A DNA stretch of 64,000 nt from an uncultured Bacillota bacterium (GCA_949290645.1 CASESG010000004.1:10821-74820), one strand, 5' to 3'; positions 20,839 to 61,073 are shown, numbered from the stretch's first letter. The notes: a model not told the origin generated them from the letters alone. A program made the numbers and translations.

Positions 20839-24450
<3,612 letters not shown>

Positions 24451-24601
24451 ACATCCTCCAATGATTCTGCTGGTTCAAGCAATTTATTATAGAACAACAC
24501 CAAAGGAAGTGGATAGCCAAAGAGGGGAAATTTGGAAGCGATTTTGTTAGCTTAAATTAACAAAACCAAACTTTTTTTCTGCTGGAAGGCTTGCAAACAA
24601 A

Positions 24602-24650: not shown

Positions 24651-26645
24651 ATGTCCTGCAAAGCCTGCGCCATGCCAGAAGATGACGAGAGCACGGAGAG
24701 GAAGGAAAAGATCCTTCATTTCGTCTTTCTCGGAGTCGGTCTGGCCCTGTTGGTCATCGCGCTAGTCCTCAACAAGGTCGATTCCTCGGCCTTTTCCGAG
24801 CTCGAGTGGGATTCCTTCTCCAATCCTTCGTTCTTCTCTTCCCTTTCCTTCTATTCCTTTCTTTTCTATACCGTCGACTATGCTTTCCTTTCTTATATTC
24901 TTATCAAGAACATGGTCGAGGAAATCAAGGAGAAGAACTATATCAACGAATTCACCCTGATGTTCCTCGCTACCGTCGGCGCCTATGCCATCGGGGAGTT
25001 TCTGGAAGCGGTCCTTGTCATCCTCTTCAACATCGTCGGGGAGACGCTTGAGGACTACGCAACCGAGAAGTCCAAGAAATCCATCCAGGGATTGGTCAAC
25101 GACATTCCCCTTTTCGCCCATGTCGTGAAAGAGGACGGATCGATCGTCGACGAGAATCCGGAGCATGTCCCGGTCGGGACATTGCTCGAGATCCGCCCAG
25201 GAGAGAAGGTGAGCATCGACGGAGTCCTCGTCCAGGGCCATTCCTCGCTGGACATGTCCTCCATCAACGGAGAGTCCCTTCCCAAGGACGTGAAGGAAGG
25301 GGACATGGTCTACTCCGGATCCATCAATCTCTCCTCTGTCCTCATCCTCAAGACCCGGAAACGATATTGGGATTCCACCCTCTCCCGCATCCTCTCCCTT
25401 GTGGAGAACGAGCAGGAGAAAAAAGCCAAGAGCGAGAAGTTCATCACCCGCTTCAGCAAGATCTACACGCCGATCGTCGTCCTGATCGCCCTTTTCGTCT
25501 TCCTGCTCGGATACGGCCTTTCGGGCTTTGTCTGGGAAGGGACAAAAGGCGGAGAAGTCTGGCTCTATCGTTCCCTTTCCATCCTTCTCATCTCCTGTCC
25601 CTGCGCCCTTGTCATCTCCGTCCCCATCTCCTTCTTCGCCGGGATCGGCGTCGCCAGCAAACTCGGGATCCTGATCAAGGGCTCTCTGCCGTTAGAGAAC
25701 CTGTCCAAAGCTCAAGTCTTCTTCTTCGACAAGACAGGAACCCTGACCAAAGGGGATTTCGTCCTTCAAAACAAGGTCGAGGAAAGAAACCTCCAGATCG
25801 CCGCATCCCTGGAAAGCAAGTCGACCCATCCCTTGGCCAAGGCCATCACCTCCGCCTACCAAGGAGACTTGCTTCCGGTCGTGGACTTCCGGAACGTCCC
25901 AGGCGGAGGAATCGTGGGAACGATCGACAATCGTCCTTATCTCCTGGGAAGCAAGGCCTTCCTTCTTCATAACGGAGTCCAGGACTTCCCAGAAACGGAC
26001 ACTCCCTACAAGGTCCTCTACCTCGCCGAGGAAGGCAAGGAAAAGATTCAGGACTTTATCGTCGCCGACGAGATCAAGGAAGGAGCCAAGGAAGCGATAA
26101 AGGGTCTGCGAGAACAAAAAGTCGAGAAGACGATCATGCTCTCCGGCGATGATCGCCGAATCGCCCATGCCGTCCAGGAAGAAATCGGACTGGACGGCTA
26201 CAAGGCCGAGCTCCTTCCCGACGAAAAGCTGAAGGAATTGAAGTCCTACATGCCGCAGAAGAAAGTCGCGTTCGTCGGAGACGGCATCAACGACTCCCCT
26301 TCCCTCCTGGCCAGCGACGTCGGAATCAGCATGGGAGGCCTGGGAAGCGATGCCGCCATCGAAGCGAGCGATGTCGTTATCATGGACGACAGCCTCACGA
26401 AGCTTGCCGAAGGGCGGAGATTGTCTCGAAGGACCATGATCAACGTCATCGTCGGTGTCCTCTTTGCCATCCTCGTCAAGGTCCTGGTCATGATCCTCGT
26501 TGCCCTGGGCTACGGAGGAAACTTCGCCATGATCTTGGGCACCCTCTCCGACACGGGCATCATGGCCCTTTGCGTCCTCCACTCAATGTCCCTCCTGCTC
26601 TACAAGACGAAATACATTCCACATCCCAAGAGAAACAAAGTCTAA
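24651..26645 (+). CDS. Heavy-metal translocating P1B-type ATPase (Cd/Zn/Co-type)
   Basis: Contains the SCPCAL (CPC) TM motif, DKTGTLT and GDGINDSP. The N-terminus is a short Cys motif (MSCKACAMPEDDE) rather than a full HMA domain. Confidence 0.9.
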   Translation: MSCKACAMPEDDESTERKEKILHFVFLGVGLALLVIALVLNKVDSSAFSELEWDSFSNPSFFSSLSFYSFLFYTVDYAFLSYILIKNMVEEIKEKNYINEFTLMFLATVGAYAIGEFLEAVLVILFNIVGETLEDYATEKSKKSIQGLVNDIPLFAHVVKEDGSIVDENPEHVPVGTLLEIRPGEKVSIDGVLVQGHSSLDMSSINGESLPKDVKEGDMVYSGSINLSSVLILKTRKRYWDSTLSRILSLVENEQEKKAKSEKFITRFSKIYTPIVVLIALFVFLLGYGLSGFVWEGTKGGEVWLYRSLSILLISCPCALVISVPISFFAGIGVASKLGILIKGSLPLENLSKAQVFFFDKTGTLTKGDFVLQNKVEERNLQIAASLESKSTHPLAKAITSAYQGDLLPVVDFRNVPGGGIVGTIDNRPYLLGSKAFLLHNGVQDFPETDTPYKVLYLAEEGKEKIQDFIVADEIKEGAKEAIKGLREQKVEKTIMLSGDDRRIAHAVQEEIGLDGYKAELLPDEKLKELKSYMPQKKVAFVGDGINDSPSLLASDVGISMGGLGSDAAIEASDVVIMDDSLTKLAEGRRLSRRTMINVIVGVLFAILVKVLVMILVALGYGGNFAMILGTLSDTGIMALCVLHSMSLLLYKTKYIPHPKRNKV

Positions 26646-26729
26646 AAAAAGCAAGACTTTTTCCTCTCTTGAAAGTTCCGACTTGTCGATTCGCCTTGAA
26701 ATTGATCGTCTGCCGTCTAGAATAAAATT

Positions 26730-26834
26730 GATGTCTGATTCTAGGCTCTGCCTCGTGATGGCTTAACTGGGGTCAATCATCATTCCGTCCTTTCTATTTG
26801 GGTGTCTGGAGAAAACCTCCAGGCACCTCTTTTC
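26730..26834 (+). ncRNA. Candidate small RNA (orphan copy of the antitoxin-like element)
   Basis: A sigma-A-like promoter, TTGAAA (26696-26701) -16 nt- TAGAAT (26718-26723), precedes it. No ORF is present. A strong terminator follows: GGTGTCTGGAG/CTCCAGGCACC (26801-26827) plus TCTTTT. The core GGCTCTGCCTCGTGATGGCTTAACTGGGG is about 85% identical to 27104-27132. Confidence 0.35.
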
Positions 26835-27088
26835 GTTTTGGACGGGAAGAAGGCATCCTGATCCAAATCAGGCAAAGCATTGCCGAAAATCAAAGCTGCC
26901 ATTCTGGAAAAATGTGATTTTGCAGCCAAACTATCCGGGAAAATGTGATGGATGGATAATTCGCTTCATAAAAGGACCAATGCATATAATTCACGAATAA
27001 CACAAGACATTTCTTCGACTTCCGCATCCATTCTTCTCCTCGTATGACCGGCCTTGGTTTTTGCACCAGCATGGACTATAATACCCAA

Positions 27089-27163
27089 GAAGGGACCGGC
27101 CGAGGCTCTGCCTCACGATGACTTAACTGGGTGAGTTAGAATCATCATTCTGGTCCTTTTTTT
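27089..27163 (+). ncRNA. Candidate antisense (antitoxin-like) sRNA overlapping the 3' end of the small toxin-like ORF
   Basis: Promoter TTGGTT (27054-27059) -17 nt- TATAAT (27077-27082). A closing stem AAGGGACC/GGTCCTTT and an inner GATGA/TCATC hairpin are followed by a run of 7 T (27157-27163). It is antisense to codons 24-36 of the ORF at 27123..27233. Confidence 0.3.
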
Positions 27164-27233
27164 CTGTCTTCTTGTCGATGTATTTGAGGATGAGGTAGAA
27201 AAGCAGAAGTCCGAGAACATCAAACGCTCCCAT
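27123..27233 (-). CDS. 36-aa hydrophobic peptide, type-I-toxin-like (Fst/Ldr-style architecture)
   Basis: Strong RBS AAAGGAGGTGAGTC before the ATG. The product MGAFDVLGLLLFYLILKYIDKKTEKKDQNDDSNSPS has one TM helix plus a charged tail. Not in the ORF track because it is under 60 aa. Confidence 0.45.
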   Translation of the reverse strand: MGAFDVLGLLLFYLILKYIDKKTEKKDQNDDSNSPS

Positions 27234-27259
27234 GACTCACCTCCTTTCTCCGGCAGCTT

Positions 27260-27355
27260 CCCTGTCGGCGGAAGATGGAAAAATAGAGGACCAAAGAAAC
27301 GAGGCAGAACCGAAACCGAATCCCTTCCGAACCCAAAGAAGGGTTCACTATTATT
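27260..27355. repeat. Roughly 100-nt repeat, copy A (leader upstream of the toxin-like ORF)
   Basis: CCCTGTCGGCGGAAGATGG...AAAGAAACGAGGCAGAACCGAAACCGA...GGGTTCAC aligns at about 80% identity with 29744-29852. Confidence 0.6.
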
Positions 27356-27448
27356 GTTTTTGAAAGCGACGTTTGTTCAGAAAAAAAGAGAAGGACTTTC
27401 AGATCGGCCTTCGCTTAGGCATCGATAAGGAGGCTTCCGTCTTTACTC

Positions 27449-28432
27449 TCAATCGCTTCCTTCTGTCATCGGATTGCTCTTCCGATACCGATTCCACAGA
27501 TACTCGAAGGTCTTCTGGACATCGTTGACGAAGGTCTTCTCCTCGATTTCGTCGACCGGAGAATAGCAGGAGATGTTGATGGACTCGGAGGTCTCCTTGA
27601 TGGGGGCGTTCATGTTGGTCCAGAGATAGATGGTTTCCTCGTATTCCTTCCTGGACTTGGCATCGGTATAGCTGGTTGCCATGATGATTGGCATCTGATA
27701 TTCGTCTTCGTAGAAACGGAGTTCGATCTTTCCGCCGTTGTCCGCAAATCGAGCGAGCTCGTGGCAGAGCTTCTGGATGTATTTCACTTGGAAAGAATGG
27801 TCTCCGTGGCTGTCGCTGATGACGGTCTTGTCCTCTTCGATGCGTAGGTGCCTTCGAAGCACCTCCAGGTCGACCGGGGCGAAAGGCTCTCTCTGGACTT
27901 TCTTGGAAAGGAGCATGGCATAGGAGCGTTCCAGGAAAGACCCGGCTTCCTCCCTTCCCTCGAAGAGGTCCGTGTAATATTTCAGAAGCGTCTCCTGCTT
28001 GGAAGGGTCCTCGTAATCCTCGGCCTTCCAGTCCTTGAAATGGCCACGGTCGGGATTGGCCAGTAGGACACGAATCTGGCATCCGTTGGAGAGCAGTCTC
28101 TTGAGATATCCGGCCTTCATCTCATAGTCGCGGAAGAATCCCCAGCCCGTGATGAAACAGAGGTCGAGATGGCTGGGCATGAGCTTTCCGTCGAGGCCGA
28201 AGCAGACATCCCTGCCGGCCTTGGACAACGTCCCTCCCTTGTGGGCATGGACCTTGTGGATTCCGTATTTCTGAAGGCTCTTTCCGATCAGTCTCTGATC
28301 CTTGAAGGCCTGATCGAGAAGGAACTTCGTCAGGATGGCGATGACAATCGCCTGAAAGACAGCGATGACGATTCCGACAATCTGTTCCGCATAGTTGATG
28401 GAGGTGAAGTCGAAGGCATCCGTGAAAATCAT
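27449..28432 (-). CDS. N-terminally membrane-anchored hypothetical protein (327 aa)
   Basis: One TM segment (IVGIVIAVFQAIVIAILTKFLL) followed by a roughly 270-aa soluble domain of unrecognised family. The start is 1 nt after the stop of the cupin gene. Confidence 0.7.
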   Translation of the reverse strand: MIFTDAFDFTSINYAEQIVGIVIAVFQAIVIAILTKFLLDQAFKDQRLIGKSLQKYGIHKVHAHKGGTLSKAGRDVCFGLDGKLMPSHLDLCFITGWGFFRDYEMKAGYLKRLLSNGCQIRVLLANPDRGHFKDWKAEDYEDPSKQETLLKYYTDLFEGREEAGSFLERSYAMLLSKKVQREPFAPVDLEVLRRHLRIEEDKTVISDSHGDHSFQVKYIQKLCHELARFADNGGKIELRFYEDEYQMPIIMATSYTDAKSRKEYEETIYLWTNMNAPIKETSESINISCYSPVDEIEEKTFVNDVQKTFEYLWNRYRKSNPMTEGSD

Positions 28433-28433
28433 C

Positions 28434-28844
28434 TCAATACTCCTTTCCCCAATTCTCTTGTTCCTTGCTCAGCTTCACAAGGATCTTGTCGTTCCCGGCC
28501 GGATACTTGAAGAAGAGAATCTTTGTCCCCTTCAAGGCTTTCTGGTAATACTTCGTCCCTCTGCGGATGATGAAGAAATCCCCTTTCTTCATCTCGACCT
28601 CTTCCATCGTCGAAAGGTCGAGGTACTTCGTCTTCCCTTCCAGGATATATTGATACTCCGAGCAAGTCGTGTGGTAATGGGGCTTTTCCACCCGATAGGA
28701 ATCGTAGAGGGTGATTCCGATCTCTACCTCATCGTCCTTCAGGTTCTCCAGCTTCTGCGGCAGCTTCAAGTCCCCGCAGAGATATTGGCGATGCTCGCTC
28801 TCCAACGTCTTGTCGATCAAGGAAGAATCCAGTTTCTCGATCAT
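28434..28844 (-). CDS. Cupin-domain protein (136 aa)
   Basis: A cupin-like core: PHYHTTCSEYQYILEGKT...MKKGDFFIIRRGTKYY. Confidence 0.65.
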   Translation of the reverse strand: MIEKLDSSLIDKTLESEHRQYLCGDLKLPQKLENLKDDEVEIGITLYDSYRVEKPHYHTTCSEYQYILEGKTKYLDLSTMEEVEMKKGDFFIIRRGTKYYQKALKGTKILFFKYPAGNDKILVKLSKEQENWGKEY

Positions 28845-29160
28845 GTTCTCTCCTTCCGAAAACTCTTCCTATTGTAACAGAAGGAATACCGTTCCCAGGG
28901 AGACCGTTTTTTGAAAACCGACATTCTCGTCCCAGGAGAAAAGAAGAAGAAAGCCAGGACTCCTCAGGATGACGAAACGAAGGGATTCGAATCATTCCTG
29001 TTTTCCTTTCTGTTCTTTTGCCGATGAAACGAATGATTGGAAAAGGAAGACAAGCCTTGTTGGGATTTCGATTTATTGACAAATCTATCTTAAAAAAATA
29101 TCGGATATTATGGGCAAACAGAAAAATAAACAAAGAATTTTCAACAAGTCGCCTATGCAT

Positions 29161-29715
29161 CTAGGATTCGGGAGCTTCCTCCTTGACTTGCTTCCTTTTG
29201 GCGCCGGCATGTCGTTTGGGCCCAAAAGGTGTTCCAGAAGACCTTTATCGGCATTGCTGAGCGTCGTCGTCTGCCAATCCTTTCCGGTGCCTTTCGTTCT
29301 AAAGACATCGGTCAGGTCAGCATACGGGCGATATCATTCACGAATACGGAACCCATAGCCGTCCGGCCGTCATGCTCTCCCGTCGTCTTGAGATCCATGA
29401 AGTTCCTGAACCCTTCGAACATGGGCTCCGTTTCCCGTCTGAGCCTATGCCGGCATAGAGGCCCAATTCCTTGGCAGCCTTGGATGACCTCTTGCAAGGA
29501 TGGATGTATCCGACTTTCCTTCCAAATCCGTTTTCCGTCTTCGTCCCTTCGGACGGGAATGCCTTGTCGCCGATCATTGTTCCTTCATCAAGGCCGAACC
29601 CTTTCATGAAGTCTTCACGGTTCTTGAAGTCGGGAAGATTTCCTTTTCATACCTTCTCGCATATAGGCTCCCATTTCTCGGCATCGATGGCAAACGGTAT
29701 GCCGATATCCGCCAT
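29161..29715 (-). pseudogene. Degenerate gene remnant (in-frame TGA plus at least two frameshifts), family unknown
   Basis: Reads MADIGIPFAIDAEKWEPICEKV*KGNLPDFKNREDFMKGFGLDEGTMIGDK... The sense then continues in two other frames (FEGFRNFMDLKTTGEHDGRTAMGSVFVNDIARMLT, then DVFRTKGTGKDWQTTTLSNADKG). Confidence 0.3.
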
Positions 29716-29743
29716 CCCTTTTGTCCGCCCTTCAAAAGAGAAA

Positions 29744-29852
29744 CCCTGCCGGCGGAAGAGGAAAAGAATGAAAAGCAAAGAAACGAGGCAGAACCGAAGC
29801 CGAGAACCTTCCAAACCCTATTCCACAAAGAACCGGGTTCGTTCTCTATTGC
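29744..29852. repeat. Roughly 100-nt repeat, copy B (leader upstream of the degenerate gene)
   Basis: See 27260-27355. Shared core: AAAGAAACGAGGCAGAACCGAA. Confidence 0.6.
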
Positions 29853-30108
29853 CAAGAACGAAGGCTTTTCTTCAGAAATCGATTCTTCCAAAGCGCAGTT
29901 CAGATGAGTCTAGCTTTCGAACTCCTCCGATGGAAGTTTTCCTCCCGTCCTTTGTGGCTCCGCAGATTGCTCGGCCAAAAATCTCATTTCAGGAATTCAA
30001 ATGACGGGCACCGATGGAATTCGGAAAGGGAAGGAAAATCTGTCCCACATCAAACGCCAATCGAACGAATGCAAAAGAAGGGCCGCTTGTTCGCCGACTA
30101 TTTCCCAA

Positions 30109-32835
30109 TCAGGCGATGACTGTCGTCGCTCCCTTTCTCCAGACGCCCAAGGTCGAATCGAACTGCAAAGAAGCAATCGGAGCATAGAGGCTACGATTCC
30201 CGGAAGACCAATCCTGGGCAGGAGTTTGTGAAATCGTCCTTGTGAAGTAATCCCACGTCACCGTTTGCGTCTGAGTGCCAAACGATGAACCCGAAATGCT
30301 TCCGGTATTGTCATCTCCCGTATAGGTCCACCCGGAATCGCTCGTCCCCTCGTCGATATGCTTTGTCAAGGAAATGGTGCCGATTCTCGAATAGGAGGAA
30401 ATGCCGGAAAAACGAGTGATGTCCGCCGGGTAATACCCCGTCGTCCCCGAAGTGTAGGAGACAGAGGAAAACAGGCTCATGGAGGAAATCGTCACAGATT
30501 GATTCGTCAAATAGTTCGTTGTCGTGTTTTCCGTCACAGAATATTCTGTCGGCATTGGACTGAAATCTCCCCAAGGGCCATGAACAATACCAAATGAAGT
30601 ACGATTCCTTGAAGCCGTGCCTTTCTCTCCGTCTCCCACCCATGTCTCCATGCTTGAGCGCACCGAAATGGTATAGGTCGTCGAATCGTTCGAGACCGGA
30701 TAGAAGTTACGTGTTGAAGAACTGTATTGGTTGTCATAGACATAGGCCGCATATGCATCGAACGTCGCCGTCGGATCAGGCACTTCGACCTGCTGGCCCC
30801 GATAGTAGGCATAATACTGGGTCGCTGTCCGGGCAAGGTGATCCTCCGACACATAGGATTCGATGGGAGTCATCGTCCCACTCATCGGACTTCCCGAGTC
30901 TGTCACATAGATATATTGGTTTTGGCCGACGGAATACACGCCTGTCCGATAGTCGTATTCCGTCTCTCCATTCGTCAAGGTGGAATCGATGTCTTCCGAG
31001 CGAAAGACGTGATAGGGGGAATCGGAAGATGAATCGTCGTTGACCATCAGGGGAACAATGAGGTACTCGTGAATCGATGATTCGAGCATGTCCTTGATGC
31101 TTCCCCCTAAAAGCGTACCGATAGCGGATCCAAGATCGATGTCTCCTCCCATATAAGAAAAGGGAATGGCGCGGGAAACGAAGGTGTCGAAAGAGGATGC
31201 GTTTCCGTTCAAATAGTCTTTTGTCGATTCGGAAAGATTCATCATTCCGGCAAGGGGATGCCCCTCCCCATCAGCCTGAATGGAACCGCCGATGGTGACG
31301 CGCGGATTCTTCTGCACGTTTCTTTCCGTTTCCTCAAGCTCATATTTCTGGTAGCGGGATCGGGTAAAATTGTAATTCGCCTTGCTATAGCCATAAAACG
31401 CCGTTGATGAATCGACTGGAAGTTCGGAAAGAACGATCAGCCCTCCTTTTGAAGTCCCTTTCTCTATGTCCACTTCGACATCTCCGAATGTAGGAATGAC
31501 GACGTTGCTGTCGAAATCGCGGCTCGTCAATCGCACCAGACTCCCTTCTTCCGTCATGACCGTGGCCCCTGGACTCAAAAGCAAAGTCAACGGAAGGGTC
31601 AAGTCGCAGTCCTTTCGAACCCTGAAATGATAGTAAGAAGGAATGTAGAAAGAAAACTGCGACATTTCAATATTGGCAGTCATCTCAAGTCCGGAAAAGG
31701 TCAAGGTTGTATTCAATGTCATGCTTTCGACAGTGACGGAACCATAAAAATCGTATTCCACGCGATGATTCGCTTCATAGGAATTGACAGCATCTGTCGA
31801 ATCCGAAAGGTTGTTATAACCATCCCGGACAATCACAGAATCCGCGGACGTCAGATTGAAGAGGGATCCCGATGGCCCTAACACGTTCATCTGCGTCTTC
31901 GTCATCATGGACTGCGCATAAAGCATCGTCGCCCCAGTCAGAACCGCTCCATGACGAAACCGGATCGAACAGCTGAGGTAGGGCATCGAATAGGTCGAAA
32001 AGGGCATCGTGGAGAAGGCCGCCCTTCCGACCGTCGGTCCGCCGCCACCATAGTCTTCGACGACAAATCCCGCGTAGATGGTTCCGGAGCAGTCGACTTC
32101 TCCAATGTGCTGCCCGTCGATCTTGCTCGTGGCGGAGTCGAGAAGATATCCGTAGGCATTCATCGTCGCTCCCGACTGAATCGTCAGCGTATGTCCGTTG
32201 AGATCGAGGGCGACGAAGCTCCCTTCGATGACACAGCCCGCGTTTCCGCCACCCGAACTCGATCCGACAAGGGCTCCGATGCTGAGAATGCCGCCGCTGG
32301 TCACAGTGACATCCCCCGCCAGTCGAATCGTATAGAGCCGGGCGGGACGAGAATCGTAATTCTGATCGTAATAATAGTTGATGGGACGGGCCGAATTCGT
32401 CGTCGCCCCTCCATCGGCCGCCGTGGTGGCAAAGCCTCCGTCTTCGGTCGGGCTCTTTCCCAGGAAGTCGTCGATTCCATAGTCGATGTCGTTTTGCCGA
32501 TGGGTGAAGTGAACAGGAGAGGAAATCTCCAGGACTTCCCCGGGCCTCCCCAAGGAAATCACCCGATTGTCTTCGTCGTATTGTGAATCGTTGTAGACAC
32601 CCGAATAGTCTCCCGACGCCGCATTCGTCTTGCTGTCATAGATGTAGCTTGGATTCGTTCCCGTCTTGTTTTCCAAGAAAGTCGTCAAGTCGCTTGGCAC
32701 AAATTCGACATAGTCCTCGTTGCTTGGAGCCTGTGCTGTCCCGTTGATGATCCACGTCGAGAAACCGACGGCAATCAAGAAGAACGTCAGAAAGGAAAGC
32801 AGGAAGGCCGAACGGATCTTCCGTGTCCTCTTCAT
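30109..32835 (-). CDS. Large secreted/anchored protein (908 aa) with the operon-specific N-terminal motif (AVGFSTWIING); paralog of 34328..37000
   Basis: Start was re-picked at ATG 32835 (MKRTRKIRSAFLLSFLTFFLIAVGFSTWII), an ATGA overlap with the upstream gene. Shares blocks with the 890-aa protein: LDLNGH.LTI.S, YG.L.DS, DYGGGG, PF..YSMPYL.C..R, and a C-terminal FDS.L..W. Confidence 0.85.
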   Translation of the reverse strand: MKRTRKIRSAFLLSFLTFFLIAVGFSTWIINGTAQAPSNEDYVEFVPSDLTTFLENKTGTNPSYIYDSKTNAASGDYSGVYNDSQYDEDNRVISLGRPGEVLEISSPVHFTHRQNDIDYGIDDFLGKSPTEDGGFATTAADGGATTNSARPINYYYDQNYDSRPARLYTIRLAGDVTVTSGGILSIGALVGSSSGGGNAGCVIEGSFVALDLNGHTLTIQSGATMNAYGYLLDSATSKIDGQHIGEVDCSGTIYAGFVVEDYGGGGPTVGRAAFSTMPFSTYSMPYLSCSIRFRHGAVLTGATMLYAQSMMTKTQMNVLGPSGSLFNLTSADSVIVRDGYNNLSDSTDAVNSYEANHRVEYDFYGSVTVESMTLNTTLTFSGLEMTANIEMSQFSFYIPSYYHFRVRKDCDLTLPLTLLLSPGATVMTEEGSLVRLTSRDFDSNVVIPTFGDVEVDIEKGTSKGGLIVLSELPVDSSTAFYGYSKANYNFTRSRYQKYELEETERNVQKNPRVTIGGSIQADGEGHPLAGMMNLSESTKDYLNGNASSFDTFVSRAIPFSYMGGDIDLGSAIGTLLGGSIKDMLESSIHEYLIVPLMVNDDSSSDSPYHVFRSEDIDSTLTNGETEYDYRTGVYSVGQNQYIYVTDSGSPMSGTMTPIESYVSEDHLARTATQYYAYYRGQQVEVPDPTATFDAYAAYVYDNQYSSSTRNFYPVSNDSTTYTISVRSSMETWVGDGEKGTASRNRTSFGIVHGPWGDFSPMPTEYSVTENTTTNYLTNQSVTISSMSLFSSVSYTSGTTGYYPADITRFSGISSYSRIGTISLTKHIDEGTSDSGWTYTGDDNTGSISGSSFGTQTQTVTWDYFTRTISQTPAQDWSSGNRSLYAPIASLQFDSTLGVWRKGATTVIA

Positions 32836-33505
32836 GCTGCCACCTCCTGTGCCATCATCGTCATCGAGAAGGAAAAGGTGCCATCCGTCAGAAAGGAGAA
32901 GAGCGTCTCGTCGAAATGCTGGAAGGTATAACGGACGAAATACTCCCCCTCCGAGGCAGGGACGGTCCAATCCGTCGAGATGTCGATGGAATACCGGCCG
33001 TCTTCTGCTGTCGCCTCGAAGGCAAAGGAGGGAATCTCCGCCATGGCGACGGACGATTGGTCGACAGAGGAATAGACCCAAACGACAGGGGAGAGATACG
33101 ATTGGTTTTCATTCACCTGGAGAGAGAGTTCGTATCGCCCGTCCTCACCCAGAGCAATCATCCGCGGAGAGGACGTCTGATAGTTCAGCCTTCCCTGAAG
33201 CACGTAATCGTAACCGTCCAACGTTCGATCGATCGAAAGCGGAATGTCCAGATGTCCGACGCTTCCGTTCAGAAAACCGGCAATCGAAAAGCGGACAGGC
33301 TGGACGTCGCCGATCGTCAGGCAATCTCGGATGTCCAGGACACCATCCGCTTCGACAGGAACGGTCGCACTCTGCGGACGGCTTTCCCCGTCTTGAATGA
33401 CCCAGCTGGAAAAGCCGACGGCAAAAAGGGTCAAAACACTAAGAACCTGCACCCCCCCCCCGCAAGGAAGAGCCGATGGCGTCGAACCCAGCGATTCAGT
33501 TTCAT
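32832..33505 (-). CDS. Small secreted protein with the GFSSWVI motif; 5' end interrupted by a poly-G(10) tract (candidate phase-variable gene, OFF frame in this sequence)
   Basis: ATG 33505 lies 4 nt after the lgt stop and encodes MKLNRWVRRHRLFLAGGG. After the G10 run it falls out of frame with VQVLSVLTLFAVGFSSWVIQDG... A run of 11 or 8 G would restore the frame. The track ORF uses a GTG inside the run (33452). Confidence 0.7.
33452..33461. repeat. Homopolymeric C10 (G10 on the coding strand) inside the 5' coding region
   Basis: Read directly: a cccccccccc g at 33451-33462. Confidence 0.95.
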
Positions 33506-46164: not shown

Positions 46165-47979
46165 TTAGAGCCTCTTGATGAGCTTGCCGACGTTGTGACG
46201 CGTCAGCGGGAACTTCTCCTTTCCGTACGTCTCGTCGATCAGATCCAGAAGGTCGAGAAGACCCTGGCGGACATAATCCTCGAAACGGCCCTCGAGCTTG
46301 TAGAGGACCTTGCGGGCAAAGAGGAAGTCAAGCGCGTCTTCCTTTGTTCCTCCGCAGCTGACATAGACCGGGACAAGGATCTCGATCTGGTTGAGGACAC
46401 GGTTACCGAAGGTGATGTCGAAGGTGTCCGAGAGGAAGGAGATGAGCTTGGCGAAGCGGGCGAAGTCCTCCTTCGTCAGGCGATTGCTCTCGGTCGAGAG
46501 AGCCTTGGCATAGAGGGCGTTGAGTCCCTTATAGGTCAGATGGATCGGAGCGACCTCTCCCTCGACCTCGAAAGGTTCGTTGCGGTCGTCGAAGGAAATC
46601 GTGATGGCACGGTCATAGACCTTGTCGGTGATGGTGTAGGTCGAGTCGTCCTTGTTGGCCGTTCCGATGAACCAGGTGTTCTCCGGGATCTTCAGGACGC
46701 CGTTCTCGAGATGGCTGGGCCCCTCGAATTCATAGGGAACCTGAAGGATGCGGAGCTTCCACTTGTCGATCGGGTATTCCATGATGGAGAGGAAGTCGGC
46801 GAAGTAGTATTCGACACGGGAGATGTTGACCTCGTCCAGGACCATGATGTTGATGTCGTTGGGGCGATAGGTCATCTGATACAGACGCTTGAGGAAGTCC
46901 GTCTCGTTGTACTTGCGGGAGAAGTCGTTGAAGAAGCCGAGCAGGGAAGTGCGGTCTCTCCAGGAAGCCTGGACCGGCTCGAAGAAAGATTCCTCTCCGA
47001 TGTATTCGGAGAAGTAACGGGCCAAGGAAGACTTACCCGTTCCCGAGAGGCCTTCCAGGATCAACAGACGGCTGGCCGCCATGCCCGAGAGGAAGGCGCG
47101 GATCGTGTCGATGGAGAAGTAGAGACCCTCGTTCTTCGCCAAGTAGCGACGGAAGTCCTCCGAGATCTCCCTGAGGGAGAGAGTCGTCTCGCTCTGGTTG
47201 AGCGGAGTCCTTGTCTCCTCGACCTCGTCGATCGTGCAAAGGCCAGGGAAGACATATTCCTTGGAGCCAAGCTCCGCTTCCGTCTGCTCGTCCTTCTCCT
47301 CCCCGTCCAGAGAGTTCGTCAGGTTGGAAAGGGCCGAGGAGGAAGGCCCCAAGGCCGAAGCCAGGGACAATCCATCGGCCGAGGCCAGAGTCGGTTCCTG
47401 CTTGTTATCCTGCTCATCGTCGATATCTTCCGTATCCTCGCCCTTGTTGAAGCGGAAGGGCTTGTCGATGTTGCGGAAATTGACGACCATCATGCAGAAG
47501 AAGAGAATCGGCAAGGCCAGGACGACGAAGAGCAGAGTGCCGATCAAGAGAGACTCGCCGAAGAAGAGGAAGCTGTTTCCGATCGCTCCCTCGCCCCTTC
47601 CGATCTGAGCCAGGAAGGAAAGGCCCAGCCAGAGAACGGCGCCTCCGAAGAAGGTCAAGGAGTAGATCAGGATCCACTTGGGAGTGAACAGCTTCTTTTC
47701 ATAAAACATGGCCAGGCGCATCTCGTAGATCAAGGCGCCGGCACAAAGGAATGCGTACACGCAGAACAGTCCCAAGACCATCCAGCCCTCGAAGCTGACC
47801 GATACCGAAGGAAGCTTCAGCATGGAAAACAGCACCTTCCGGAGCGGGCTGTTTTCGCTGATCAGGGCATTTCCCGTGTCGGCGAAGAATCCCGAGCCAG
47901 CCACGAACAACAGATAGAAGAACAGCAACGACAGGAAGATGTAGTTCTTCCTTGTAAAATGAGTCTTTCGTTTCTTCAT
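46165..47979 (-). CDS. Membrane-anchored McrB-family AAA+ (AAA_5) NTPase
   Basis: The N-terminal 170 aa or so contain 4 TM helices, followed by an acidic linker. The NTPase core reads LEGLSGTGKSS (P-loop), VLDEVNISRVEYYFADFLS (Walker B / McrB signature), WFIGTANKDDST, DKVYDRA. GGGAGG RBS; ATGA overlap with the sipW stop. Confidence 0.75.
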   Translation of the reverse strand: MKKRKTHFTRKNYIFLSLLFFYLLFVAGSGFFADTGNALISENSPLRKVLFSMLKLPSVSVSFEGWMVLGLFCVYAFLCAGALIYEMRLAMFYEKKLFTPKWILIYSLTFFGGAVLWLGLSFLAQIGRGEGAIGNSFLFFGESLLIGTLLFVVLALPILFFCMMVVNFRNIDKPFRFNKGEDTEDIDDEQDNKQEPTLASADGLSLASALGPSSSALSNLTNSLDGEEKDEQTEAELGSKEYVFPGLCTIDEVEETRTPLNQSETTLSLREISEDFRRYLAKNEGLYFSIDTIRAFLSGMAASRLLILEGLSGTGKSSLARYFSEYIGEESFFEPVQASWRDRTSLLGFFNDFSRKYNETDFLKRLYQMTYRPNDINIMVLDEVNISRVEYYFADFLSIMEYPIDKWKLRILQVPYEFEGPSHLENGVLKIPENTWFIGTANKDDSTYTITDKVYDRAITISFDDRNEPFEVEGEVAPIHLTYKGLNALYAKALSTESNRLTKEDFARFAKLISFLSDTFDITFGNRVLNQIEILVPVYVSCGGTKEDALDFLFARKVLYKLEGRFEDYVRQGLLDLLDLIDETYGKEKFPLTRHNVGKLIKRL

Positions 47980-55217: not shown

Positions 55218-56296
55218 AGAAACTCGTCCTCCATCACTTCCGCTCCTATCCGGAACTGGACGTCTCCTTCCCGGAGAGAGGAATCTATATCACCGGGGAA
55301 AACGGGAAAGGAAAGACCAATCTCCTCGAAGCCATCGACTATCTCGCCCTGGGAAGAAGCTTCCGCAGGGTCGAGGATCAAGAGCTGATCTCAAACGGCG
55401 AGAAGGAAGCTTCCATCTATCTGGAATACCACGATGAATCCGACGGAAAGGATCACGTCCTCTCCTGTCTGATCGGGCAAGGATACAAGGCGATGGAGAA
55501 GGATGGGGAGAAGCTCAAGACCCTCTCCAAGATGCTGGGAAGTCTCCTCTCCGTCCACTACGATCCCTCCTTGGTCTTCTTCTTCAAGGAAGAGCCGATG
55601 GAAAGAAGAAAGTTCCTCGACGAAGTCCTCAGCCAGGTCGATTCGAAATATCTCTACGCTCTCTCTCGCTACAAGAAACTGCTCAAGGAGCGGAACACGG
55701 CCCTGGCCAAGGATTATGACCTGGATGTCCTCAACGTCCTCAAGGAACAGCTGATCGTACTCTCCTATCGCCTCGTCCAGGAGCGGAAGAGATTGATCCA
55801 GGTCCTCTCCTCCCGGATGGAGAGCTACTACCAGAAGCTCTTCGGCGACGAGAAGGAAATCCATCTGCTCTACAAGACCACTTGCTCCCTCGAGGATTCC
55901 CAGGAGAGCTACGTCCAGGAGATGCGAAAGCTCTTCGACAGCAACCGCTCCGCCGAGAACCTCAGGAAGACCACCCTCATCGGACCCCACAGGGACAACC
56001 TGCTCTCCTTCCTGGAAGGGAAGGATATCGCCCTTCAGGGAAGCCAGGGAGAAAACCGCCTCGCCTCCCTCGCCCTGCGCCTGGCCCTGAGAGAGTTCTT
56101 CCAGGAGAAGAAAGGAAAAGGACCGTTGCTTCTTCTCGACGACGTCACGTCCGACCTCGACGAGAAGAGAGCCGAGAACCTGCTCTCCCTGATCAAGGAC
56201 AAGGGACAGGTCTTCGTGACCGGGACGCAAATTCGCAAAGGCTACGATGCCTTCGATACGTATATCTGCCAAGACAACACCTTACGGAGGAAATGA
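55208..56296 (+). CDS. recF: DNA replication/repair protein RecF
   Basis: Walker A GENGKGKTNLLEAI, signature region, and Walker B LLLDDVTSDLD. 362 aa. Confidence 0.9.
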   Translation: MFVKKLVLHHFRSYPELDVSFPERGIYITGENGKGKTNLLEAIDYLALGRSFRRVEDQELISNGEKEASIYLEYHDESDGKDHVLSCLIGQGYKAMEKDGEKLKTLSKMLGSLLSVHYDPSLVFFFKEEPMERRKFLDEVLSQVDSKYLYALSRYKKLLKERNTALAKDYDLDVLNVLKEQLIVLSYRLVQERKRLIQVLSSRMESYYQKLFGDEKEIHLLYKTTCSLEDSQESYVQEMRKLFDSNRSAENLRKTTLIGPHRDNLLSFLEGKDIALQGSQGENRLASLALRLALREFFQEKKGKGPLLLLDDVTSDLDEKRAENLLSLIKDKGQVFVTGTQIRKGYDAFDTYICQDNTLRRK

Positions 56297-56297
56297 C

Positions 56298-58460
56298 ATG
56301 ACCGAAGAAGAGAAGAGAAAACAGCTCGACGAACTGACCGAGAAACAGAGGAAGAAGGTCGAGCAGGTCGCCCAGGCCGAAAGCAAGCAACCCCAGCCCC
56401 AGAAGAAGGTCGAGAAGGCCGTCGAGGAAAGTTTCGAGGAGGAACACGTCGAACACTCCGCCCTCGACGAGAAGCAGGAAGAGAAAGCCCTCAAGGCCAA
56501 GGAAGAGTACACCGGAAAGGACATCGAAGTCCTCCAGGGCCTCGAGGCCGTGCGGATGCGTCCGGGCATGTACATCGGAACGACTTCCAGCCGCGGCCTT
56601 CACCACCTTGTCCGAGAAGCGGTCGACAACGGCGTCGACGAGGCCATGGCCGGCTTCTGCAAGCACATCCGCGTCACCATCCTCCCCGGGACGAAGGAGA
56701 ACCCAATCAACCGCCTGCGGGTCGAGGATGACGGAAGAGGCATCCCCTGCGACAAGAACGCCCAGACCGGACTCTCGACCGTCGAGACGGTCTACACCGT
56801 CCTCCACGCCGGCGGAAAGTTCAACGACAAGACCGGATACAAGATCTCCGGCGGTCTCCATGGCGTCGGCGTCAAGGCCGTCAACGCCCTTTCCACCTAT
56901 GTCGAAGTCACCGTCTACCGCGACGGCAAGATCCATCGCATCCGCTTCGAGAACGGCGGACACACCATCGCTCCCGGACTGGAAGTGATTGGCGAGTGCC
57001 CGGAGGAAAAGACCGGAACGACGGTCGAATTCACTCCCGACCCCACCATCTTCCGCGAGACCACGACCTTCGACTACAACACCATCAAGACCTATCTCCG
57101 CCAGACCGCCTATCTGACCAAGGGAGTCGACATCGTCCTGGAAGACCTCCGCGACAAGGACAACATCCTCCGCTCCCACTACTGCTTCGCCGGAGGCATC
57201 AAGGAATACGTCGAATACATCAACCAGGAGAAGGAGAAGGTCTTCGAGGCCGTCCCCTACGTCATCGGAGAAGCCACCGTCCCCATGGGCGAGGAATCGA
57301 CGACCATAATCGTCGAATGCGCCATGCAACCGACAAAAGGCGGATTGCTCTCGATGAATTCCTTCTGCAACAACATCCGCACCAGTGGCGGAGGAACGCA
57401 CGAGGAAGGTTTCCGCCTGGCCATCGGAAGAGAGCTCAACAACTACTTCCGCACCAAGGGTTGGCTCAAGGAAAATGACAGCAACTTCAAGTCCGAGGAC
57501 TGCCTGGAGGGATTGACCGTCGTCATCTCCATCAAGCACTCCAACCCGCAGTACGAAGGACAGGTCAAGGATAAGCTCGGAAACGACGAGGTGAGAAAGG
57601 TCGTCTCCTCCATCGTCGGCGACTACCTCAAGGAATGGCTGATGGAAAACCCCAAGGAAGGAAAGGCCTGGTATGACCGAGTCGTCCTGGCCTTCAAGTC
57701 CAGAAGGGCCGCGGAAAACGCCAGAGCCAAGATCCAGGGCAAACTCTCCATCGGAGCCGGCATGCCCGACAAGCTCACCGACTGCATCTCCAAGGACCCC
57801 AAGGAGAGAGAGCTCTTCATCGTCGAGGGTAACTCCGCCGGAGGCTCCGCCGTCCAGGGAAGAGATGCCCGCACGCAAGCCGTCCTCCCCCTGAGAGGAA
57901 AGATCCTCAACGTCGAGAAGGCTCCGGCGACCCGCATCGAGAAGAACGCCGAGATCTACAACCTCGTCACGGCCATCGGCGCCGGACAGGGAGAGAGCTT
58001 CGACGTCTCCAAGATCCGCTACGACAAGGTCATCATCATGACCGATGCCGATGTCGACGGCAGCCACATCCGCATCCTTCTGATGACCTTCTTCTATCGC
58101 TTCATGCGCCCTCTGGTCGAGACCGGTCACCTCTACATCGCCCAGCCTCCTCTCTACCGCGTCGCCTACCAGGGCCATTACTACTACGCCTTCAACGACG
58201 AGGAGCTCGAGGTCATCAAGTCCAAGCTTCCCCAAAACGCCCGCTACGGACTGCAACGTTACAAAGGCTTGGGTGAAATGGATGCCGAACAACTCGATTC
58301 CACCACGATGGACAAGAACCATCGAAGGATGTATCAAGTCACGATCGACGATGCCCAGGAAGCCAACGATGCCCTGATCGATCTGATGGGCGAGAACGTC
58401 GATCCGAGAAAAGACTACATCACCGCCAACGCCAAGTTCGTCAAGAACCTGGACATCTAA
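56298..58460 (+). CDS. gyrB: DNA gyrase subunit B (with a roughly 63-aa charged N-terminal extension)
   Basis: GGAGG RBS. ATG 56298 is 2 nt after the recF TGA. Motifs: LEAVRMRPGMYIG, EGNSAGGSA, PLRGKILNVEKA, IMTDADVDGSHI. Confidence 0.95.
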   Translation: MTEEEKRKQLDELTEKQRKKVEQVAQAESKQPQPQKKVEKAVEESFEEEHVEHSALDEKQEEKALKAKEEYTGKDIEVLQGLEAVRMRPGMYIGTTSSRGLHHLVREAVDNGVDEAMAGFCKHIRVTILPGTKENPINRLRVEDDGRGIPCDKNAQTGLSTVETVYTVLHAGGKFNDKTGYKISGGLHGVGVKAVNALSTYVEVTVYRDGKIHRIRFENGGHTIAPGLEVIGECPEEKTGTTVEFTPDPTIFRETTTFDYNTIKTYLRQTAYLTKGVDIVLEDLRDKDNILRSHYCFAGGIKEYVEYINQEKEKVFEAVPYVIGEATVPMGEESTTIIVECAMQPTKGGLLSMNSFCNNIRTSGGGTHEEGFRLAIGRELNNYFRTKGWLKENDSNFKSEDCLEGLTVVISIKHSNPQYEGQVKDKLGNDEVRKVVSSIVGDYLKEWLMENPKEGKAWYDRVVLAFKSRRAAENARAKIQGKLSIGAGMPDKLTDCISKDPKERELFIVEGNSAGGSAVQGRDARTQAVLPLRGKILNVEKAPATRIEKNAEIYNLVTAIGAGQGESFDVSKIRYDKVIIMTDADVDGSHIRILLMTFFYRFMRPLVETGHLYIAQPPLYRVAYQGHYYYAFNDEELEVIKSKLPQNARYGLQRYKGLGEMDAEQLDSTTMDKNHRRMYQVTIDDAQEANDALIDLMGENVDPRKDYITANAKFVKNLDI

Positions 58461-58472
58461 GGAGGAAGAATC

Positions 58473-61073
58473 ATGGCTGACAACGAACAAGAGATCACGA
58501 AGGTCGGAAAAGGCATCGAGGGCTTGCAGGAAGGCATCGTCGCCGGAACCGAACCCGACGACTTCGCCAAGGAGATCAAGAATTCCTTCCTCGACTATGC
58601 CGTCTCGACCCTGACAAGCCGTGCCATCCCCGATGCCAGGGACGGCCTCAAGCCGGTTCAGAGAAGAATCATCTACGACATGTATTGGGACCTGGGAGTC
58701 ACTCCCGACAAGCCCTTCAAGAAATCCGCCCGTGTCGTCGGCGACGTCATGGGAAAATATCACCCGCACGGAGACTCCGCCATCTACATGGCCATGGCCC
58801 GTCTGGCCCAGGATTTCGCCATGCGTTACACCCTCGTCCAGGGACATGGTAACTTCGGCTCTCCCGATGGCGACGAACCGGCTGCGTCCCGTTACACCGA
58901 GGCCCGCCTTTCCAAGATCGCCCTGGAGATGACAAGGGACATCGAGAAGGACACCGTCCCCTTCATGGACACCTACGACTCCGAAGGCAAGGAACCGATT
59001 GTCCTTCCCTCCCGCATCCCCAACCTTCTCTGCAACGAATCTTCCGGCATCGCCGTCGGCATGGCCACCTCCATCCCTCCCCACAACCTGAGGGAGACCA
59101 TCTCCGGCATCCAGGAAGTCATCCGCAACCCCGAGATCACCACCGAGGGATTGATGGAGATCATCAAGGGACCCGACTTCCCTGGAGGCGGCGTCATCTT
59201 GGGACGTTCGGGCATCAAGCGCTACTTCGAGACCGGCAGGGGATCGGTCAAGGTCCAGGGAAAGTACGAGATCCAGGACAAGGACGGCCATCAGGAAATC
59301 GTCTTCTCCGAGCTTCCCTACATGGTCAACAAGAGGGATCTCTACAAGAAGATCGTCGACCTGGTCGATGACAAGCAGATCGACGGCATCGCCTCCTGCG
59401 CCGACTACTCCTCCAAGAAGATGGGAACGCACTTCGTCATCGTCCTGAAGAAGAACGCCAATGCCGAGCTTGTCCTCAACCACCTCTTCCGCATGACAAA
59501 CCTGAGGACCTCCTTTGCCGTCAACATGCTCGCCTTGGACAACGGAACGCCCAAGGTCCTCTCCATGCGCCAGGCCATCGACATCTACATCAAGTTCCAG
59601 GAAGAGGTCATCACCAAGAGGACAAACTACAACCTCAAGAAGGCCAAAGACCGCATCCACATCCTGGAAGGCTTCCTCTTCATCGCCGATGCCATCGACG
59701 AGACCATCCGCATCATCCGCTCCTCGGAGACGGACGAGGAAGTCATCGCCAGGCTCAACGAGCGCTTCGGGCTGGACGAGATTCAGTCGAGAAGCATCCT
59801 CGACATGCAGCTCAAGCGCCTCAAGAAGCTCGACCAGAAGAAGTATGCCGACGAGAAGCTTGCGCTGGAGAAGGATTGCGAGCTCTACAACAGCATCCTG
59901 ACCGACAAGACCGTGCTCGAGAAGACCCTCATCGACGAGCTCGAGGAGATCAAGAAGGCCTATGGAGACGACCGCAGGACCGAGATCACCGATTTCGACG
60001 CCAGCGAGAGCGACGAGGACCTCATCCCCGACAAGGAAGTCCTGATCATCCTGACCAAGGGCGGATACATCAAGCGCATCGATCCCAGCGAGTTCAAGGT
60101 CCAGAACCGCGGCGGAGTCGGAGTCCAAGGAATGAAGACCAAGGACGATGACGATGTCGACATCCTGCGCCACACCCGGACCAAGACCGACGTCCTCTTC
60201 TTCACCGACTTCGGCAAGGTCTATCGCTGCCGCGGCTATCAGATCCAGGAAGGAAGCCGGACCTCCAAGGGCATCCCCATCATCAACTTCTTGCGCCTGG
60301 ACAAGGACGAGAAAGTCACCTCGATTGTCTCGATGGACGACTATTCCGAGAATTCCTATCTCTTCTTCGCCACGAAAGATGGCGTCGTCAAGCGCTCCAG
60401 CGCGACCGAGTTCAAGAACATCATGTCTAACGGCAAGATCGCCATCTCCCTCCGCGAAGGAGACCGCTTGATCGATGTCAAGCACACCGACGGGACGGCC
60501 CTTGTCTCCTTGGGCTCCTCCGAAGGAAAAGTCTGCACCTTCCCAGAGTCGGAAGTCCGCTCGATGGGAAGGACGGCCACCGGCGTCAAGGGCATGGATC
60601 TCCCTGAGGGAGAGCATGTCGTGGGTGTCGTCACGACCCTTGAGGGAGACAAGATCTTCTCCCTCTCGGCCAACGGCTACGGAAAGATCACGCCCATCAG
60701 CGAATACCGCGTCACCGCCCGTGGCTCCAAGGGCGTCAAGACGATGAAGGTCGCCGACAAGAACGGCTCCCTGATCGCCATCAAGACCGTCAAGGGAGAT
60801 GAGGACATCCTGATCATCACAGATCACGGAACGACGATCCGCACCACCCTCACCCAGGTCAGCAACATGTCAAGGAACACGATCGGCGTCAAAATCATCA
60901 CCCTGAGGGACAAGGAGAGCATCTCCTCTTGCTCCATCGAGCCAAGCGCAAGCGACTACGAGGCCAAGGACGATCCGTCCCTGGACAAGGAACCGGAGGA
61001 GAACAAGGACGAAGCCCTGGAAGAACTGCTCCGGCGTGCGGAAAAAGAACAAGACGACTCCGACGGCGAATGA
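58473..61073 (+). CDS. gyrA: DNA gyrase subunit A
   Basis: [28 protein letters not shown] (QRDR), active-site [10 protein letters not shown], six beta-pinwheel blades, and an acidic tail. Confidence 0.95.

Follow-up and report, generated by a model that had tools for sequence, protein, structure and literature searches.

A candidate toxin-antitoxin module of type I with a predicted 5'/3'-locked mRNA and a predicted 3'-overlapping antisense RNA in an uncultured Firmicutes lineage

What is the function of a 36-codon gene that appears to be faced, across its 3' end, by a small RNA gene on the opposite strand? The question is raised by a locus in a 64,000-nucleotide stretch of DNA from an uncultured Bacillota bacterium (GCA_949290645.1 CASESG010000004.1:10821-74820; hereafter the window, with positions counted from its first letter), which the original prediction, made from the sequence alone, described as similar to toxin-antitoxin (TA) loci of type I. 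Our analysis makes it quite likely that the locus is a type I TA module, as yet a candidate one: the open reading frame (ORF), its ribosome-binding site (RBS), the antisense TATAAT box, the terminator stem with its T7 run and both arms of a long-distance RNA pairing are kept in 11 copies. The features of the intact locus are the following.

27350-27379, minus strand: predicted promoter of the toxin mRNA, TGAACA-18-AATAAT, 9/12 matches, found by a consensus scanner
27077-27348, minus strand: predicted toxin mRNA of ~270 nucleotides (nt), the unit of homology as delimited by alignments (nhmmer E = 5e-94)
27329-27346, minus strand: 5'-terminal hairpin GAACCC...GGGTTC (helix 1), 98.5% paired over 11 sequences
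27287-27328, minus strand: long-distance pairing, 5' arm (GGAAGGGAUUCGGUUUCGGUUCUGCCUCGUUUCUUUGGUCC), which is homologous, in the same sense, to the 5' half of the small RNA and has the anti-Shine-Dalgarno-like CCUCGUUUCUUU inside
27240-27244, minus strand: Shine-Dalgarno (SD) sequence GGAGG, 6 nt from the ATG, predicted to be base-paired, invariant in 11 copies
27123-27233, minus strand: toxin-like ORF of 36 amino acids (aa), hydrophobic N-terminal helix and mixed-charge, acidic tail
27089-27116, minus strand: long-distance pairing, 3' arm (GAGGCAGAGCCUCGGCCGGUCCCUUC), located in the 3' untranslated region (UTR), also the target of the small RNA 5' half
Segments of the 5'/3' helix: GGUUCUGCCUC and GAGGCAGAGCC
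27054-27082, plus strand: antisense RNA promoter, TTGGTT (27054-27059), 17 nt, TATAAT (27077-27082)
27089-27163, plus strand: antitoxin-like antisense RNA of ~75 nt, folding as a three-way junction, which overlaps the last 13 codons and the 3' UTR

The locus is not a chance arrangement, because related loci recur, with at least 11 distinct intact copies in several contexts. Six metagenome contigs of the same species carry the exact peptide. Among 1.84 billion representatives, an exhaustive phmmer search returned one cluster only (32 aa, 68% identical), and a profile search of 90% clusters gave eight peptide variants. With the contigs of these variants and a scan of GTDB species genomes for a 20-mer from the leader, the collection rose to at least 11 distinct loci of full length, besides several partial ones; the only named genome, the GTDB species 'uncultured Firmicutes bacterium CO.A33.metabat-bins.79', carries three intact copies on two contigs. 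Copies lie beside a P-type ATPase gene, between genes for an acetyltransferase and a flavin mononucleotide (FMN) reductase, and on either side of an AAA_14/DUF4143 gene. No relative was found by a protein-pattern scan of Joint Genome Institute (JGI) metagenomes, and no family match in viral contigs, plasmids or phages. Two candidates were set aside: L010, a match to the leader 20-mer in JGI data, is due to chance and lies inside an unrelated coding region, and the second 36-aa gene of L003 is not a paralogue. Since the flanking genes for the ATPase and for pyruvate:ferredoxin oxidoreductase are 85-88% identical between lineages, the known family corresponds to about one genus-level clade. Rfam, which holds 13 type I antitoxin families (PMC8594479), gave nothing relevant over the whole window at gathering thresholds and no family at E <= 10 on 26600-27450, and Pfam, NCBIfam and PADLOC searches with the peptide and its neighbours gave only noise, such as a BhlA holin at E = 0.12. 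To judge from these searches this is a previously undescribed sequence family, from uncultured gut-type Firmicutes.

The ORF with a near-perfect RBS that had been proposed at 27123-27233 is present. It translates as MGAFDVLGLLLFYLILKYIDKKTEKKDQNDDSNSPS, and the context 5' of it reads AAGGAGGTG, in which GGAGGTG leaves 6 nt between GGAGG and the ATG. AlphaFold predicts a single helix over residues 3-31 (predicted local distance difference test score 89-94 at residues 1-20), and the best 15-residue Kyte-Doolittle mean is 2.2. Type I toxin mRNAs are typically 150-400 nt long and encode hydrophobic peptides of 20-60 aa (PMC8594479), ranges within which both the ~270-nt unit and its peptide fall. 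The ORF is open in every copy, at 32-36 aa, with SD and start codon intact in 11/11 full copies; an indel of 1 nt, tolerated in the tail only, makes the difference between 32 and 36 aa. Among copies, EKKD and the hydrophobic core (DVL.LL.FYL.L) are conserved, the codons of the core are invariant or nearly so, and the variable positions retain their character.

Several results indicate that the transcript of this ORF would be closed upon itself. Homology among copies begins at a CAATA -10-like element just upstream of the 5' hairpin and ends exactly after the antisense TATAAT. The CAATA core is kept in the other copies, where the toxin-side promoter scores 6-7/12; this promoter is weak in all copies and, at 6-9/12 overall, weaker than the antitoxin promoter. 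The 5' hairpin is itself lengthened by an insertion in other copies, with extended stems in L005, L008 and L009. Folding of the predicted transcripts, which had been suggested as a check, gave a minimum free energy (MFE) of -108.7 kcal/mol for the whole minus-strand transcript (27345 to 27075; z = -5.1, 0/200 shuffles) and z = -3.3 for the antisense RNA. In the mRNA MFE fold the leader is joined by ~30 bp to the 3' UTR and the end of the ORF; the RBS is paired (P(unpaired) of the SD mostly <0.2 in the predicted folds). The two complementary segments originally noted, GGTTCTGCCTC (27301-27311, minus strand) and GGCTCTGCCTC (27104-27114, plus strand), are there and belong to this pairing, which is ~30 bp long as against the 11 bp then seen. 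It is present in all 8 individual MFE folds, and the RNAduplex energy of leader versus 3' region is -48.4 kcal/mol, as compared to -31.1 +/- 4.5 kcal/mol for shuffled sequences, none of which (0/300) reach it; RNAduplex was used for this comparison only, as energies with long partners are uninformative owing to unrestricted interior loops.

The comparison of copies supports the same fold. RNAalifold on 8 mRNAs recovers the 5' hairpin, the long-distance helices, a leader hairpin beside the SD, a hairpin at the ORF start and the 3' hairpins, and over 11 sequences 98.7% of cells in the consensus structure are paired, versus 42-55% in slid-partner controls. The 3' arm is invariant in 11 copies and helices 2 and 3 are 99.5-100% paired, while the leader core TCGGTTCTGCCTCGTTTCTTT is the best conserved segment, with 32/36 columns invariant versus 51/86 in the ORF. 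Compensatory changes occur at 7 mRNA pairs in local hairpins (3/500 shuffles reach 7), and the mRNA covariation score of 0.116 versus 0.090 was reached by 0/500 shuffles. Three of the long-distance pairs change on one side yet stay paired (GC/GU, UG/CG, CG/UG). The long-distance helix is thus supported by conservation, by the individual folds and by energy, but not by covariation.

On the opposite strand, TTGGTT-17-TATAAT and a T7 run at 27157-27163 were both found where they had been proposed, and the RNA of ~75 nt predicted from them would indeed be antisense to the 3' end of the ORF. All copies share the same TATAAT, and although their flanks are unrelated, each has TTGnnn or TTTAAA 16-17 nt upstream. 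In the predicted RNA, a closing stem with U7 (its terminator) encloses two hairpins, GAGGC-UCU-GCCUC and a second, variable one; 27089-27166 folds at -29.1 kcal/mol with the closing stem running into the T7. This three-way junction was recovered in every copy, with 95.7% of cells in the consensus paired and 3 pairs that show compensatory change, among them a GC to AU exchange in the closing (terminator) stem of L016 copy 1. GACAGAAAAAAAGGACC (the antisense terminator), GAGGCAGAGCCTCGGCCGGTCCCTTC and the TATAAT are invariant or nearly so across copies. At the sequence level, the predicted antisense RNA gene has a promoter and a terminator of its own. Two invariant G.U pairs in the closing stem would become C.A mismatches on the mRNA strand, which argues that it is the plus-strand RNA, and not the mRNA strand, that is under selection there. 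One otherwise identical contig (L001:3071-3156) has a 1-nt deletion in this stem (GGGACC to GGACC), either a real variant or an assembly error.

From the sequence features, their conservation, the compatibility of the copies with both structures and some covariation, we infer transcription, toxicity, decay by RNase III and a translational effect along the following lines. The weak promoter would yield the ~270-nt mRNA for a 36-residue hydrophobic helical peptide, presumed to be a membrane toxin. This mRNA would close on itself, with ~30 nt of the leader paired to the 3' UTR and the end of the ORF, and with the RBS inside a helix; given such closure, the full-length mRNA would be stable yet poorly translated. 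From the opposite strand, the perfect -10 box would drive the ~75-nt RNA, which is fully complementary to the 3' arm of the mRNA. Binding of this small RNA would expel the leader and create an extended perfect duplex that would be an RNase III substrate. In its 5' half (GAAGGGACCGGCCGAGGCUCUGCCUC) the small RNA resembles the leader (GAAGGGAUUCGGUUUCGGUUCUGCCUC) and has the same sense, so that the leader in cis and the small RNA in trans would compete for the 3' arm of the mRNA. Once released, the leader is in some copies predicted to pair anew with the RBS through CCUCGUUUCUUU: in folds constrained by blocking the small-RNA site, the SD moves to the leader in the window sequence and in L005, but not in the other six copies. 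Such a handover of the SD to the released leader is speculative.

A number of observations weigh against a type I TA module, or against parts of the scheme. Whether or not the antisense RNA is bound, the RBS is predicted to be paired, which leaves no evident route for activating translation. Of the single transmembrane helix with a charged tail in the original prediction, the helix and the tail are predicted here as well, but it is not certain that the helix spans a membrane, as the hydrophobic stretch is short (~15-16 residues) and includes D5 and K17. The ORF has more nonsynonymous than synonymous differences, the former clustered at residues 3-4 and 17-22, and variation is about equal at the three codon positions, so the coding nature of the ORF is supported by retention of ORF and SD, with no dN/dS signal. 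The -35 box of the antisense promoter in the window matches at only 3/6 positions and the promoter was therefore not listed by the consensus scanner, and no canonical terminator was found for the toxin transcript. Among the 30 long-distance pairs, 26 never vary, none shows a double compensatory change and one is broken in L016 copy 2; their conservation could equally reflect constraint on the antisense RNA or on its target site. Finally, sampling of the family is shallow and its copies are mosaic through recombination. With sequences that are close relatives and mosaics, the shuffle statistics overstate independence, and independent compensatory events are few.

How does the putative module compare with known type I systems? 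By organisation the closest known system appears to be bsrG/SR4 of the Bacillus subtilis SPbeta prophage, whose ~294-nt mRNA encodes a 38-aa hydrophobic peptide and pairs its 5' nt 1-35 with nt 232-262 (helix P1), with the SD in a helix (PMC3834814). Structure probing has revealed that SR4, which is convergent, binds the 3' region of bsrG, whereupon nt 1-33 are freed, the SD helix lengthens and RNase III degrades the duplex; the SR4 promoter is stronger than that of bsrG (PMC3834814). The locus described here is predicted to share this design: a ~270-nt mRNA would encode a 36-aa peptide, its 5' and 3' regions would pair over ~30 bp with the SD in a helix, and the antisense RNA would be complementary to the 3' region; the toxin promoter is also weaker than the antitoxin promoter with its perfect -10 box. 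A 5'/3' helix corresponding to P1, a paired SD and an antisense RNA to the 3' arm are all found in the predicted folds. It differs in that the antisense RNA is ~75 nt long (SR4, ~180 nt), lies wholly inside the mRNA and is enclosed entirely by its terminator stem, that the peptide tail is acidic or of mixed charge rather than basic, and that the locus lies outside any recognisable prophage. Rfam, Pfam, NCBIfam and phmmer gave no sequence homology of toxin or RNA to the bsrG/SR4 group (BsrE-G-H).

The convergent arrangement, with an antisense RNA overlapping the 3' end and part of the ORF, is also that of txpA/RatA, yonT/SR6, bsrE/SR5 and CD2517.1-RCd8 of Clostridioides difficile, and as in those Gram-positive modules the long perfect duplex predicted here would imply decay of the RNase III type (PMC8594479, PMC6563280). 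Their toxins are longer (50-59 aa), those of C. difficile have lysine-rich tails, and none is homologous to the present family; with TxpA (59 aa)/RatA in particular, Rfam and Pfam gave no homology and only the 3'-overlap organisation is in common. The extended 5'-3' lock present here is not a stated feature of these four systems in PMC8594479 or PMC6563280. The original prediction had likened the locus to the RatA/SR4 type and to hok. The 3' overlap of the former has been borne out; hok is not the closest analogue, and bsrG/SR4 is a better match. What is shared with hok/sok (plasmid R1) and AapA1/IsoA1 (Helicobacter pylori) is the fold-back principle, i.e., a full-length toxin mRNA that is inert through 5'/3' pairing. 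In both of these systems the site bound by the antisense RNA is the 5' leader or translation-initiation region, and 3' trimming is required for activation, whereas the antisense RNA here would target the 3' arm and there is no mok-like overlapping reading frame. The peptides had no significant match in the Pfam library, of which the Hok/Gef model should be a part, and nothing beyond the fold-back principle links the locus to Hok/Sok.

With par (Fst/RNAII of Enterococcus pAD1) the locus shares convergent genes with a common terminator region, a 5' stabilising hairpin, a peptide of similar kind (Fst is ~33 aa with an acidic C-terminal tail) and repeats common to the 5' parts of both RNAs. In par, those repeats make the RNAs complementary at the 5' end of the mRNA, and the interaction takes place outside the overlap (PMC8594479); here the common segment is same-sense in both RNAs, and the small RNA therefore cannot pair with the leader. 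That difference, together with the lack of a significant match to the peptides from the Pfam library (which should include the Fst toxin model), sets the locus apart from Fst/RNAII. The new module would thus be new by sequence and known in kind, belonging with the Gram-positive type I systems of the 3'-overlap type.

The window shows a pattern by which type I loci have been found (PMC8594479, citing Fozo 2010), namely tandem, partly decayed copies and an orphan antitoxin. Type I systems are often multi-copy or tandem and poorly annotated; here the window has one intact copy and three fragments, the named metagenome-assembled genome (MAG) has three intact copies, and L011 and L016 carry tandem copies. 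Running the nhmmer profile of the family on the window gave four pieces, all matching on the minus strand: the intact locus, a match at 26804-26743 (E = 1.7e-8) that marks the following small-RNA gene, and two fragments beyond those of the original prediction.

26696-26838, plus strand: orphan antitoxin-like small-RNA gene, with promoter TTGAAA-16-TAGAAT (26696-26723), body ~26730-26798 and terminator 26800-26828 followed by a T tail
29714-29840, minus strand: leader-only remnant with promoter region, 5' hairpin and leader (nhmmer E = 2e-21)
28958-29052, minus strand: decayed 3' fragment, profile positions 149-247 (nhmmer E = 4e-4)

The orphan had been noted as a homologous plus-strand element at 26744-26795 with a promoter and a strong terminator and without a toxin ORF. 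That description stands, with the correction that homology is wider: the element aligns with the intact small-RNA gene from the -35 box to the decayed T-run (~26696-26798). Between 26743-26771 and 27103-27131, 26/29 positions are identical, and 0/100 shuffles gave any match. The scanner listed both the promoter (10/12) and the 12-bp terminator at 26800-26828, at which the RNA would end, since its own closing stem and T-run have decayed. The toxin ORF is absent opposite 26696-26838. The orphan recurs in L016, from a different lineage, where both hexamers, TTGAAA and TAGAAT, are unchanged and the terminator has been retained although 6/16 spacer positions have changed, which suggests that it is maintained by selection. 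It would accordingly be a complete, conserved copy of a small-RNA gene rather than a mere fragment; we regard it as an extra antitoxin-type RNA gene, left from the turnover of tandem copies, that could act in trans. The orphan sits between the stop codon of the ATPase gene (26645) and the first plus-strand terminator (26800-26828), and since it precedes that terminator, transcripts reading through from the ATPase gene would carry antitoxin-like sequence in their 3' UTR.

The leader-only remnant stops after ...GGCAGGGTTTCTCT, before the RBS. It contains a 75-nt copy of the leader (29744-29818; 81% identity), and is 96-99% identical to the leaders of the intact copies L008 and L009. It keeps a promoter-like region and the 5' hairpin, and could drive downstream genes. 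Between it and the decayed 3' fragment lie ~660 nt of broken ORFs without a Pfam match, and no promoter-like box was found on the antisense strand of the fragment (28958-29052). The idea that the leader at 29744-29818 and the orphan at 26744-26795 were one locus split by 2.9 kb was dropped, because nhmmer found the nearer 3' fragment and because L017 and L019 show the undisrupted arrangement.

These pieces occupy a site that is variable among strains. On the minus strand the order is a 990-aa gene, the disrupted copy (leader, ~660 nt of broken ORFs, decayed 3' piece), a cupin gene, a 327-aa gene, the intact module, the orphan and the convergent P-type ATPase gene, and the interval from the ATPase to the 990-aa gene (window 26646-30108) differs from that in L011, L014, L016, L017 and L019. 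L017 and L019 have the simple arrangement of large gene, module and ATPase, and there the flank upstream of the intact copy is the one found at the leader-only remnant of the window. In place of two modules in the MAG, L014 carries a single hybrid one, L011-L013 have an additional cassette (a 208-aa Pyr4-like membrane protein) and an additional orphan 3' copy, and L016 has the AAA_14/DUF4143 gene between two module copies. The variable cassettes are bounded by whole or partial module copies, and some genomes have only one module there. The second copy of L016 (L016:1741-2013) is mosaic, with an L007-type leader and N-terminal codons in its 5' half and window-type C-terminal codons and 3' UTR, which we read as evidence of recombination between copies; it has one uncompensated change in the leader core (GGTTCAGCCTC). 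The modules thus mark the turnover of cassettes at the ATPase/990-aa-gene site, and probably mediate it too. A more far-reaching proposal, which we think rather improbable, is that the copies are portable blocks of homology driving the acquisition, loss and exchange of cassettes at a single chromosomal hot spot (990-aa gene to P-type ATPase), with the orphan kept by selection as a trans-acting 'immunity' against incoming or resident toxin copies and possibly also delivered in the 3' UTR of the ATPase, so that control of the toxin would be tied to expression of the ATPase.

Could the locus be something other than a TA module? The alternative that survives best, still unlikely, is an ordinary small membrane protein gene with a cis-antisense RNA and no toxin, for example one whose product is accessory to the P-type ATPase, like small proteins of the KdpF or MgtS type. 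It draws on the short hydrophobic segment and on the fact that the locus adjoins the same heavy-metal-type ATPase in many genomes; yet the peptide gene is convergent with the ATPase gene, with no co-transcription, and other copies lie in unrelated contexts (acetyltransferase/FMN reductase; AAA_14 gene). Genomes moreover hold up to three copies, with tandem decayed copies and orphan antisense genes, and a 5'-3' locked mRNA, a sequestered SD and a stronger antisense promoter are typical of products that are kept off.

Very unlikely, and rejected by us, is a non-coding repeat or mobile element, similar to a miniature inverted-repeat transposable element or a recombination site, in which the ORF is incidental. 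At the DNA level the leader and 3' arms do form an imperfect inverted repeat of ~30 nt, and whole or fragmentary copies flank strain-variable cassettes, with mosaics attesting to recombination between copies. This repeat is internal and not terminal, no target-site duplications were seen, there is no transposase, and phage, plasmid and viral collections gave no match. ORF, start codon and SD are all intact in 11/11 full copies with the indel confined to the tail, and the perfect -10 box, the T7 terminator and the strand-specific G.U pairs point to transcription units. Least likely of all is that the antisense element is a mere bidirectional terminator and the orphan an ATPase 3' UTR with its terminator, neither giving an independent small RNA: the closing stem does stand at the 3' end of the toxin mRNA and the orphan, between 26645 and 26800-26828, falls in the ATPase 3' UTR regardless, but an invariant TATAAT lies 6-7 nt upstream of the stem even where no gene precedes it on that strand, the TTGAAA and TAGAAT of the orphan are kept in L016 over a spacer diverged at 6/16 positions, and the closing-stem G.U pairs favour the plus strand.

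As a candidate type I TA module, the locus would add a clearly delimited new sequence family to these systems, from an uncultured Firmicutes lineage without annotated ones, and it allows both RNAs to be predicted nearly to the nucleotide. The design of bsrG/SR4, with leader and antitoxin competing for one 3' site, would here be repeated with unrelated sequence, suggesting a recurrent solution and not a one-off. Tandem decayed copies and a conserved orphan antitoxin beside variable cassettes offer a natural series for studying module turnover. The principle is a known one, and the value of the example depends on experimental confirmation.

Some minor observations concern the neighbouring genes. 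The 136-aa protein (28434-28844, minus strand) is a cupin whose gene overlaps or abuts that of the 327-aa protein (27449-28432, minus strand), and the pair travels as a cassette. Neither the 327-aa protein, which by eye has a hydrophobic N-terminal stretch, nor the 990-aa protein (30109-33081, minus strand) has a match in Pfam, NCBIfam or PADLOC. Very long 'shadow' ORFs run antisense to genes throughout the window: one of 1206 aa at 20872-24492 (plus strand) lies opposite the gene for the 1203-aa pyruvate:ferredoxin oxidoreductase (20839-24450, minus strand), and others lie opposite 46165-47979 and 56193-60827. Such ORFs are unusual at 53% GC and presumably have their source in codon bias.

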